From: Escherichia coli
GTDB lineage: Bacteria; Pseudomonadota; Gammaproteobacteria; Enterobacterales; Enterobacteriaceae
NCBI RefSeq assembly: GCF_029227855.1
Contig: NZ_CP074356.1
DNA: 64,000 nt
Reading direction: 5' to 3' (one strand)
Of the stretch, positions 5,601-8,600 are shown one piece after another; position 1 is the first letter of the stretch; every line of letters begins with the position of its first letter. A program made the position numbers.

Positions 5601-8600
5601 CAGCTCTTCGCCGAAGTACCAGGTGAGATGACCCGGCATATAGCCTATCTCTGGCGTTTGTTTGTCTGCGGCGTCTGGGAATGCGCAAATGGAATAACCA
5701 TTCAGTGGGTTATCGCCGTGGCGAAGCGCCAGAAAAGCCGCCGGGCCGTGGCAAAGGGAGATAACAAAACGGTCATTTTTGATTGCCCACTGTAAAGCGG
5801 CAGCCACGTCCTGGCTTTCAGGTAAACCAATAAGTGCGCCATGACCACCAGGAACAAAGATTGCTGCATATTCGCTGTCTGCGTTGAGGCTGGCGACAAC
5901 ATCCGCGAGTTTCTTCGGATTGCGGAACAACGATTTATGCTGCTCAAAGAATGGCATTACTTTTTCATCTTTGTGCGGCATAGCCCAGTATTCAAACTTG
6001 GTCATCAGACCGGAAATGGTCGCCACTTCGAATTCGAAACCTGCAGCGTGGAGATGATACAACGGCAGCAACGTTTCAATCGGATGGTTACCGGTCGAGA
6101 ACAGTTTTCCGTTATCGGTCGGCAAATAACGTTCGTCCGCGGCGATCACCAGAATTTTATGTTTACCGCGATACGGTTTTGGATAGTCCACGCCATCAAG
6201 ATCAGAGACAGGACTGGTATATTGGCTAAGCGAATATTCTGAAGGGAAGAATGCATTATCTTCAGCAATATCGACCTGCGGATTTTTACTTGTTTGAACA
6301 GTCATAGTGTATTCCTTATTGTTGCTTAGTTAGGGTAGTCACTATATTTGCGACTGAGCTGGTCGCTATTTTTAACCAGGCTGGAAAATTGAGTCAATAT
6401 ATCGAAAGCGGTAGTCGGCGGGTGTAAGTATGTAATGATGATGCTGCACTGGTGTTGAATATTATTCACGCCAAATTTTCCTTATTGAGCTACGTCGTCG
6501 CAAGTGGCCTCAATGATTTTAGACCATTATCAGAGGTACGGGGCGGCGGGGAGAGATTTAGTGCTGTGGAATATTGTGGTGCTGATGAATATTTATATCC
6601 CGGATTGGTAGAGAAAAAGCTTTTTCTATGCACTTTTTTTGCAAATATTTCTGTATGGGAGGCGGTTTTGTTGCAGATTAATTCATAAAGAAATGCATTT
6701 GGGTGTTGGCTGGAAGAGTCGCGGGTAGATGTTATTGTGCCAGCAGGGGCAGGGTAAGGTACTGTATCGATATGCTTTGGCAATTGCATGTGCCGCAGAG
6801 GGAGATGAAATGCCAATAAAAAAGCCTGAGTTCGATGAGGGACGAACTCAGGCTAGTGTTAACTTTTACAGTAACACGCCGCGGCGCGTTGGCTGATTAG
6901 AACTGGTAGACTAAGCCCACAGCAACGATATCATCGGTAGCGATGCCGTTTGCTTTGTAGAAGTCGTCGTCGTTGTCCAGCAGGTTGATTTTGTAATCAA
7001 CGTAGGTGGACATGTTTTTGTTGAAGTAGTAAGTCGCACCAATATCAACGTATTTAACCAGATCTTTATTGGTGTAACGTGGGTCGCCGTTGCCGTCATG
7101 AGCCCAACCACCTAAATCCTTACCTTTAGATTGCAGGTAAGCGATGGACGGGCGTAGGCCGAAGTCGAACTGATACTGAGCAACAACTTCAAAGTTTTGG
7201 GTTTTGTTCGCAATACCACCTCTGTCAATGTCGTTATTGTCTTTTCCGCTGCCATATGCAGTCATATTACGTGTTTCTGCATACATTGCCGCTAAATAGA
7301 CATTATTCGCATCATATTTAGCACCGACTGTCCATGCTTCAGCTGTTTCACCACCAGCATATTTATTCGAGCGTTGCTCACCTAAACCAGTAGCACGTTG
7401 GTTATCAGTACGGTCAGAGTTTGAATATGCAGCCCCGAGGCTTAACCCGAAGTCAAAGTCATAGGAAGTGGACATACCGAAACCGTCACCATTTTCTTTA
7501 GACAGTTTACGATTATTACCATTACCAGAACCTTCTTGATCCCAAAGCCCACCCGATCCTTCATTATTACCCTGATATTGCAGAGCAAAGTTCAGGCCAT
7601 CGACCTGACCAAAGAAGCCATTGTTACGGTAGGTTGCAACACCATTAGCACGACCGTTCATGAAGTTGTCGGCACCAGCATAGGTATCGCCACCAAATTC
7701 TGGCAGCATATCGGTCCATGCTTCGATGTCATATACGACACCGTAGTTACGACCATAGTCGAAAGTACCATTCTGACCAAAGCCTAAACCTGCAAATGCC
7801 AGACGCGTTGCGGTATTACCTTTGTCGCTTTCAGGACCGTTTGCGCCAATGTTAAATTCCCACTGACCATAACCAGTGAATTGGTCAGCGATCTGAGTTT
7901 CACCTTTGAAACCGATACGGGCATATGACATGTCGCCATCGCTGCCAGCATCATCAGAGAAGTAGTGCAGGCCCGCTACTTTTCCGTACAAATCCAGTTT
8001 ATTACCATCTTTATTATAGACTTCAGCCGCATTTGCTGCGCCAGCAACTAATAACGCCGGGACCAGCATTGCCAGAACTTTTCTTTTCATTATGTATTCC
8101 CTTGTGATTATAATCTTCATGAATATATCAATAAGTGCCGTTATCCAAAAAAAAAGCACATTTGGATACTATTCTATGAAGTTCATTTTATTTTAAAGAT
8201 TACATGTAACAAATGTATTTAAAAGATTTCAAAATGTTTCTAATTTATTTAATATAATTCAGAATTATGAATTCTAAATATAAATATTCATGAAAATTAT
8301 AAATGTATATCAATATGTTATGAGTTGAGTGGAAACATGGGGGGTATCAATGAGTGTTGCGCCAAACGGCTGGTGTGATCACGCGCACATTAATGAAGGC
8401 ATAAAAAAAGCCGGCATCATGCCGGCCCAAAAAATATAAACAAGACGATAAAAGGCTAATAACGGAGGCATCATGACACAGAAAAATAAAAAGGTATAAT
8501 TGTAATCAGTGCTAATATATTGATTGAATGAATTAATAAAGCCGATATCAAAGATAAATAAAATCGCTCAAAACGATTTTTCCTGTATTCACTGCCATTG

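Follow-up and report, generated by a model that had tools for sequence, protein, structure and literature searches.

The porin OmpS1 of Salmonella enterica is described as 'quiescent', and its gene is silenced by H-NS/StpA and activated by LeuO and OmpR (PMC4264507, PMC4393010). The Escherichia coli gene yedS has been equated with ompS1, and induction of sigma-E lowers the yedS mRNA together with other porin mRNAs (PMC2731931). In the annotation of E. coli MG1655, yedS (b4496) is a pseudogene, and a K-12-type genome carries it with the flag 'frameshifted; internal stop'. A functional YedS that influences carbapenem resistance has been reported from a clinical isolate, and the K-12 gene is said there to be normally untranslated (Warner et al. 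2013, Antimicrob Agents Chemother 57:1935, as cited in PMC4048246 and PMC11267920). The yedS-yedR intergenic region serves as a polymorphic host-source marker (PMC11267920). Here, we analysed yedS and its upstream region in a 64,000-nucleotide (nt) stretch of E. coli DNA (contig NZ_CP074356.1, assembly GCF_029227855.1), which we call the window. In the window, yedS is present as an intact allele, and its product is taken to be the E. coli equivalent of OmpS1. Our reading, to which we assign a probability of roughly 0.78, is that of an intact yedS/OmpS1-type porin at a conserved locus, probably silenced by H-NS/StpA, with a near-neutral T tract in the loop of its leader.

The gene is defined by the following features.

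6897..8090, minus strand: yedS coding sequence, 397 amino acids (aa) plus stop codon (6897-6899), an intact OmpC-family general porin
8028..8090, minus strand: signal peptide, 21 aa, cleavage before AEVYNK, the same in every E. coli allele family sampled
8098..8103, minus strand: Shine-Dalgarno sequence AAGGGA, 7 nt 5' of the ATG, read from the sequence
6815..6854, minus strand: intrinsic terminator of yedS from a terminator scan, a 12-bp stem and then TTTTTATT, 43 nt past the stop codon

The open reading frame (ORF) listing of the window contains a minus-strand frame of 420 aa that runs from a GTG, at 6897..8159. This is exactly the interval given for the gene in the original prediction, an earlier note on this DNA. 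The end at 6897 was right, but the start was not. We take the ATG at 8090 as the biological start because the AAGGGA Shine-Dalgarno sequence lies upstream of it and the signal peptide directly follows, and the GTG at 8159 is merely an upstream in-frame codon. The AAGG of the Shine-Dalgarno sequence is invariant in 25 loci from several genera, and the signal peptide is constant across the E. coli allele families although their mature parts diverge by up to ~45%. The same note had claimed a single intact frame of 397 aa from signal peptide to C-terminal aromatic residue, and this holds on realignment: the frame has neither stop nor frameshift, and its product terminates in ...LVYQF. RefSeq annotates the same 1194-nt coding sequence as WP_089567897.1 in JNEC-KY178, a Japanese clinical isolate whose genome matches the window at 100% identity across 2 kb. 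In the annotation of that genome the gene order is vsr-dcm-yedJ-drpB, rseX-yedS-hchA and hprS-hprR, which is the position of yedS in MG1655.

Comparison with K-12 yedS over a 2-kb region gave 100% coverage and 92.9% DNA identity, with an identical leader and signal peptide. The differences are concentrated in a mosaic and highly divergent central segment, 7200-7560, which encodes loops. Alignment places the K-12 lesions at window position 7607, where CAG has become TAG (codon 162), and at 7425, where 1 nt is deleted; there are no other disabling differences. Both the annotation and the alignment therefore bear out the expectation that yedS is broken in K-12, which has no intact ORF. Thus, the window and K-12 share the same gene at the same locus, with the window copy intact and its upstream tract T9 rather than T8.

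The window protein matches the Pfam family Porin_1 (PF00267) from end to end, with residues 27-397 aligned to profile positions 1-337 of 337 (479 bits, cut-off 23.7; E 9.9e-144). Among solved structures, OmpK37 (6v78, E 2.7e-147) is the closest, with OmpC (2j1n, E 6.6e-124) and OmpK36 also among the nearest. YedS has a Sec signal peptide, the PEFGGD motif of the L3 constriction loop at residue 130 and a C-terminal Phe. A full-length Porin_1 domain, the PEFGGD L3 loop and the C-terminal Phe are likewise found in OmpC, OmpN and OmpK37. All three differ from YedS in chromosomal locus and regulatory region, and the extracellular loops of YedS are longer (397 against 367/377 aa). The end-to-end homology to solved porins suggests that YedS is a general diffusion porin of the OmpC family with a trimeric, 16-strand barrel. 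Since it carries every sequence hallmark of an exported, assembly-competent porin, YedS could form a working pore if expressed.

We considered whether the gene might be ompC itself or a recent ompC duplicate, as the protein exceeds the cut-off of the NCBIfam 'porin OmpC' subfamily (547.8 bits against 484) and PGAP applies the name ompC. However, canonical ompC lies beside micF, ~280 kb away in K-12, and the window protein is 62% identical to K-12 OmpC and 67% identical to OmpN. The window gene instead occupies the yedS position, has the 92.9% DNA identity to the K-12 yedS pseudogene and has syntenic orthologues of its own in other genera. Position and identity refute the ompC assignment, which we regard as exceedingly improbable.

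We assessed the state of yedS across the species in 18 loci, taken at even steps through a ranking of 5431 E. coli records. The gene is annotated as intact in 14 of the 18 (352-404 aa; ~78%), and our own translations agree. The remaining four are pseudogenes with independent lesions, namely the K-12 stop and frameshift, a frameshift in strain 106, an IS3 truncation of the 3' end, and an IS30-adjacent copy with a frameshift. A frameshifted yedS pseudogene is also present in three O157:H7 genomes. Intact proteins of 395 aa are found on at least 1000 contigs in the protein database, under the record names 'outer membrane protein yedS', 'outer membrane protein S1' and 'porin OmpC'. The exact subtype of the window is rare, with 59 of the 5431 records at least 99% identical to it. 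The original prediction had singled out the intact yedS, but an intact copy is not unusual, as seen from the 14 intact genes among the 18 sampled, the abundance of the protein in the database and the functional YedS published in 2013. Both the intact gene and its AT-rich upstream region, probably silenced by H-NS, are common and were known before. The gene has some practical relevance, as YedS is able to stand in for OmpC and OmpF on their loss, by which carbapenem susceptibility is affected.

In the three O157:H7 genomes drpB is annotated as frameshifted as well as yedS, and a 6-bp TGACTT repeat indel within yedS separates the strains.

The independent inactivations in K-12, O157:H7, strain 106 and the IS3 and IS30 loci would also be expected of a cryptic relic that is drifting to loss, was never meaningfully expressed and is intact in the window by chance. 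About 10% of genomes are without the locus (the leader is present in 4879 of 5426), and the adjacent DNA is silenced in K-12 (PMC8313858). However, signal peptide, L3 motif and C-terminal Phe are retained within a full-length frame in ~78% of the genomes sampled, the locus is syntenic across many genera, and its leader hairpin covaries. Furthermore, the mature region is swapped for complete open cassettes and is not decaying, a pattern expected of a surface protein under selection. A functional YedS has been published from a clinical isolate, and Salmonella ompS1 mutants are attenuated in virulence (PMC4264507). We therefore judge it quite unlikely that yedS is such a relic.

Upstream of yedS, we identified the small RNA (sRNA) gene rseX and a spacer of low GC content.

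8403..8492, minus strand: rseX sRNA gene, in tandem 5' of yedS (Rfam RF01401, 96.7 bits against a gathering score of 50, E 3.9e-13; MG1655 b4603)
8408..8428, minus strand: stem of the rseX intrinsic terminator from the terminator scan, followed by T7
8160..8402, minus strand: AT-rich rseX-yedS spacer, GC 20-29%, a candidate H-NS nucleation region on the basis of composition and the literature on rseX

The GC content is 0.20 over 8100-8299 and 0.285 over 8200-8399, and that of the flanking genes is ~0.45-0.55. The strongly AT-rich upstream region that had been described at 8100-8400 is thus real (GC 0.20-0.29), but rseX (8403-8492) had been overlooked, so this region is the spacer between rseX and yedS. 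RseX is not detectable in wild-type K-12, and RseX 'and surrounding areas' are de-repressed in hns mutants and especially in hns stpA mutants (PMC8313858). Silencing of yedS by H-NS, which the original prediction had read from this AT-rich region, is plausible by analogy with the adjacent rseX and with Salmonella ompS1. The likeness to ompS1 extends to the same protein family, a similar protein size, an AT-rich upstream region and OmpR-box-like repeats, and both genes are expected to be silent in the laboratory. The two loci differ in that the T tract is specific to Escherichia and that Rfam finds rseX only in Escherichia loci.

RseX is an Hfq-dependent sRNA that represses ompA and ompC (PMC7648144, PMC8313858). 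The arrangement resembles micF-ompC and micC-ompN, in which an sRNA repressing other outer-membrane protein mRNAs adjoins an alternative porin gene, and micC was seen beside ompN here too (locus L060). Whereas those pairs are divergent, rseX and yedS lie in tandem, each with its own terminator. The Rfam scan detected rseX in Escherichia loci only (E. coli and E. albertii) and not in the syntenic Citrobacter or Klebsiella loci. We compared the sRNA seed regions MicF(1-35), RseX(1-60) and MicC(1-32) with positions -72..+30 of yedS using RNAduplex, as full-length sRNAs were uninformative even for the control. None of the three pairs with the yedS leader better than shuffled sequences, at a setting where the MicC-ompC control gives z = -3.7. 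We make no claim either way on direct sRNA pairing with the yedS leader.

The yedS locus is old, and its synteny extends to Citrobacter, Klebsiella, Enterobacter, Lelliottia and further genera. A recent horizontal acquisition of yedS/rseX from Salmonella, as suggested in PMC8313858, is unsupported for the porin, since the dcm-yedJ-(drpB)-porin order is common to many enterobacterial genera.

For the promoter and leader, we compared the 125 nt 5' of the start codon in 25 syntenic dcm-yedJ-(drpB)-porin loci from ~12 genera, among them Escherichia, Citrobacter, Klebsiella, Enterobacter, Lelliottia, Trabulsiella and Phytobacter. The window contains the following elements.

8201..8241, minus strand: four tandem OmpR-box-like repeats of the GxxAC type at 10-bp phasing, GAAACATTTT GAAATCTTTT AAATACATTT GTTACATGTA, assigned by sequence likeness
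8165..8177, minus strand: ATAGAATAGTATC box, the putative -10, with TAGTAT (8166-8171) overlapping TAGAAT (8171-8176); the best-conserved block 5' of the leader in the 25 loci
8135..8159, minus strand: weak hairpin of the leader, GUGCU-N15-GGCAC, whose loop contains the T tract (RNAfold -4.8 kcal/mol, z -0.3)
8147..8155, minus strand: T9 homopolymer (A9 on the plus strand), 57-65 nt 5' of the ATG, of variable length in the population

The conserved order from 5' to 3' is GTTACA/GAAACA-type repeats at 10-bp phasing, an (A)ATAGTATC box, then after 4-7 nt a hairpin, an ATTCA...ATTAT block and the Shine-Dalgarno sequence. The ATAGAATAGTATC box is at the same position as the GAGAAT -10 of ompC. Transcription of yedS most likely starts near 8159-8163, a few bases past the TAGTAT box, as judged from this conservation and from the analogy with ompC. 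The GTTACATGT / AATTACATTT blocks of the putative OmpR repeats are kept across genera, and the region has the 11-mer ACATTTTGAAA in common with the ompC upstream region, where it presumably corresponds to the C1 OmpR box. We infer that the yedS promoter may depend on OmpR.

Comparison of the leaders indicates that the hairpin is conserved in position. In Citrobacter, Enterobacter and Lelliottia it is found at the same place, ~30-70 nt 5' of the porin ATG, with stems of 7-10 bp and z about -2 to -3.9. The stem sequences differ by genus (AUGUAGU/ACUACAU, AUGUAC/GUACAU, GUAAUUAC/GUGAUUAC and GUAACCAC/GUGGUUAC). A covariance-model alignment of 22 non-Escherichia loci has 90.8% of its cells paired and compensatory double changes at 6 of 10 pairs; these pair counts lean towards the hairpin, as the alignment is fitted to the structure. 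Controls in which the structure was slid were 23-57% paired, and none of 500 shuffles reached the observed covariation. MAFFT alignments with RNAalifold predicted no pairs in these leaders, the 3' arms of Citrobacter and Enterobacter being 2 nt out of register. The covariance model built on the non-Escherichia loci found no match in the window or in Escherichia. The Escherichia loop is ~10 nt larger, with the T tract where Citrobacter has CUUUC or UUUCCC, and the Escherichia hairpin is a degenerate version of the leader hairpin conserved in the other genera. Its position makes it most likely that the tract is part of the transcript, falling at about +5 to +17 of a ~70-nt leader. The leader architecture is comparable to that of ompC, which also has a stem-loop in its leader of 81 nt.

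In Escherichia alone, a shorter loop segment has expanded into the T tract, which is interrupted in E. albertii (TTTTTATT). The window contains three homopolymers of at least 8 bases, of which the yedS tract is the longest A/T run, and a T9 by itself is statistically unremarkable inside a stretch of 20% GC. We typed the tract in 5426 genomes by exact matches to 87-90-nt queries with T7, T8, T9 or T10 and identical flanks. The region is present in 4879 of these, with ~1180 left unclassified by single-nucleotide polymorphisms in the flanks. The counts were 441 genomes with T7, 2876 with T8, 361 with T9 and 23 with T10, so that T8, the K-12 length, accounts for 78% of those classified, and the window has T9. 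Length also changes within allele families, between T8 and T7 for the 371-aa and the 352-aa alleles and between T9 and T7 for the 395-aa allele, and it is homoplasic across them. The three O157:H7 genomes, in all of which yedS is a pseudogene, carry T7, T8 and T9 and have few other differences. The T run of the rseX terminator ranges from T6 to T8 in the same sample.

The original prediction had noted the A9 run at 8147-8155 and supposed that its length differs between isolates and alters promoter spacing. The run and its variation are confirmed by the sequence and by the comparison across genomes. The spacing role is not supported, since TAGTAT (8166-8171), the one -10-like box that is kept across genera, lies upstream of the tract, and the tract itself is within the loop of the leader hairpin. 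A promoter scan and inspection found no credible -35/-10 pair that brackets the tract. Three candidate pairs were rejected. TTGGAT...TATATT/TATTCA has a spacer of 14-16 nt and a poor -10. TTGATA-13 nt-TATAAT (8107-8112) has a perfect TATAAT, but its spacer is too short and a start there would remove most of the leader. TTGTTA-16-TAAAAT (8212-8185) came from the promoter scan and still leaves the tract downstream.

Homopolymers form phase-variable promoters of surface-protein genes in Neisseria and Haemophilus. The yedS tract likewise consists of a single repeated nucleotide close to the 5' end of a gene for a surface protein, and its length is polymorphic in the population. By analogy, it could be a contingency element in which slippage switches or tunes yedS transcription through -35/-10 spacing, UP-element phasing or H-NS/OmpR phasing. 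The T7-T10 polymorphism across the 4879 genomes, the recurrent changes within allele families and clonal O157:H7, the Escherichia-specific expansion and the rank of the tract as the longest A/T run in the window are all compatible with such a role. A simple-sequence contingency locus is expected to lie in an ORF or between -35 and -10 and to vary in length among close isolates; the yedS tract does vary among close isolates, but it lies outside both, following the conserved -10-like box at a distance of 5-10 nt. In contrast to the Neisseria and Haemophilus tracts, its range is narrow around the modal T8, E. coli mismatch repair is intact and another nearby run behaves alike. The tract varies equally where yedS is a pseudogene (K-12 and O157:H7), and is therefore not maintained by selection on expression. 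The similar variation of the rseX terminator run favours a generic instability of homopolymers. Thus, a contingency function is unlikely, and ordinary homopolymer slippage is the likeliest reading of the variation, with the tract probably a near-neutral slippage site in the mRNA leader.

We propose that transcription of yedS would start a few bases downstream of the TAGTAT box, at a promoter that follows OmpR-box-like repeats and lies within DNA of 20% GC. H-NS/StpA would keep the yedS DNA largely silent in the laboratory, by analogy with rseX and Salmonella ompS1. The T9 tract would be transcribed, would form the loop of a weakened 5'-terminal hairpin and would drift between T7 and T10 with no role in -35/-10 spacing.

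Several points weigh against this interpretation of an intact, probably silenced porin gene with a near-neutral tract. There are four independent kinds of inactivation (the K-12 stop and frameshift, the O157 frameshift, IS3, and IS30 with a frameshift), and yedS is therefore dispensable in some lineages. MicF-dependent control of yedS, which the Warner 2013 abstract reportedly describes, was not reproduced by the simple duplex test. Some of the tract lengths that come from long-read assemblies may be homopolymer sequencing errors. A scan of 8122-8615 for the high-affinity H-NS motif TCGATAAATT gave four matches with two mismatches, the number expected from AT-richness; AT content accounts for the apparent local excess, and we rejected enrichment of the motif. 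The putative start site and -10 box derive from conservation and from analogy with ompC. Lastly, the orthology of yedS and ompS1 is based on the literature (PMC2731931) and on record names, and the 80 loci that we retrieved include no Salmonella.

A by-product of the comparison, and a more useful one than the intact yedS itself, is the exchange of cassettes behind a fixed module of regulatory region and signal peptide.

6900..8020, minus strand: mature-porin cassette, the exchangeable hypervariable part, delimited by the drop in DNA identity to other E. coli loci

The other E. coli loci match the window at 97-100% DNA identity as far as the signal peptide extends (~8020) and then from the stop (~6910) onwards, with 30-80% in the stretch between these points. 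The breakpoints are the junction of signal peptide and mature protein and the stop codon (loci L085-L098 and L104-L109). We counted genomes with at least 80% coverage of each mature-region query and distinguish four types.

Type A, 392-404 aa, ~1620 genomes: the type of the window, OmpS1/OmpK37-like
Type A', 387 aa, 366 genomes, each at 99% identity or higher: shares ~80% identity with the syntenic porins of Enterobacter, Lelliottia and Trabulsiella
Type B, 357/371 aa, 1357 genomes: closest solved structure OmpK35
Type C, 352 aa, 1141 genomes

The type A protein of the window is 71% identical to A', 55% to B and 54% to C, and B and C are 68% identical to each other. The window protein is thus nearer to the paralogues OmpC (62%) and OmpN (67%) than to the B and C alleles of its own locus. 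Relatives of type B (73-85% identity) occupy the same yedA-vsr-dcm-yedJ-(drpB) position in Citrobacter, Enterobacter hormaechei and the Klebsiella oxytoca group, each with the leader typical of its genus. Both A-like and B-like types are found at the yedS locus in Citrobacter, Enterobacter and Klebsiella. A description of this polymorphism was not found in the literature searched, which is weak evidence of novelty. We tentatively suggest, as a possibility that we hold to be somewhat doubtful, that yedS is a long-lived polymorphic 'porin cassette' site maintained by selection, at which the whole mature region is exchanged behind a constant, genus-specific promoter, hairpin and signal peptide. 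If so, selection of a balancing or frequency-dependent kind, with phages, colicins or antibodies as possible agents, would imply that yedS is expressed and is an ecologically important surface protein despite its silence in the laboratory, and the hypermutable T tract of the leader would become a candidate expression rheostat.

PGAP calls the A-type yedS 'ompC: porin OmpC' (RefSeq hits H1-H15) and the B and C types just 'porin'. Genomes of type A thus appear to hold two ompC genes, which could mislead calls of porin loss in resistance genotyping.

A further feature lies just downstream of rseX.

8372..8392, no strand assigned: CRP-type palindrome GGTGTGATCACGCGCACATTA, with one spacer base different from K-12

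Its K-12 equivalent, at coordinate 2033766, has an in-vitro CRP footprint that was assigned to yedS (PMC12871828). A second CRP-type palindrome, TATGTGATAAAAGTCACATTT, is found at 8663-8683, just 5' of the corrected start of drpB, and also matches an in-vitro CRP footprint of K-12 (PMC12871828).

The longest homopolymer of the window is a G10 at 39086-39095 on the plus strand, inside an ORF of 500 aa (38495-39997), and is a possible site of slippage or frameshifting. The local translation around it (…AVNTLGGGGAGSVAVDF…) resembles the variable region of flagellin.

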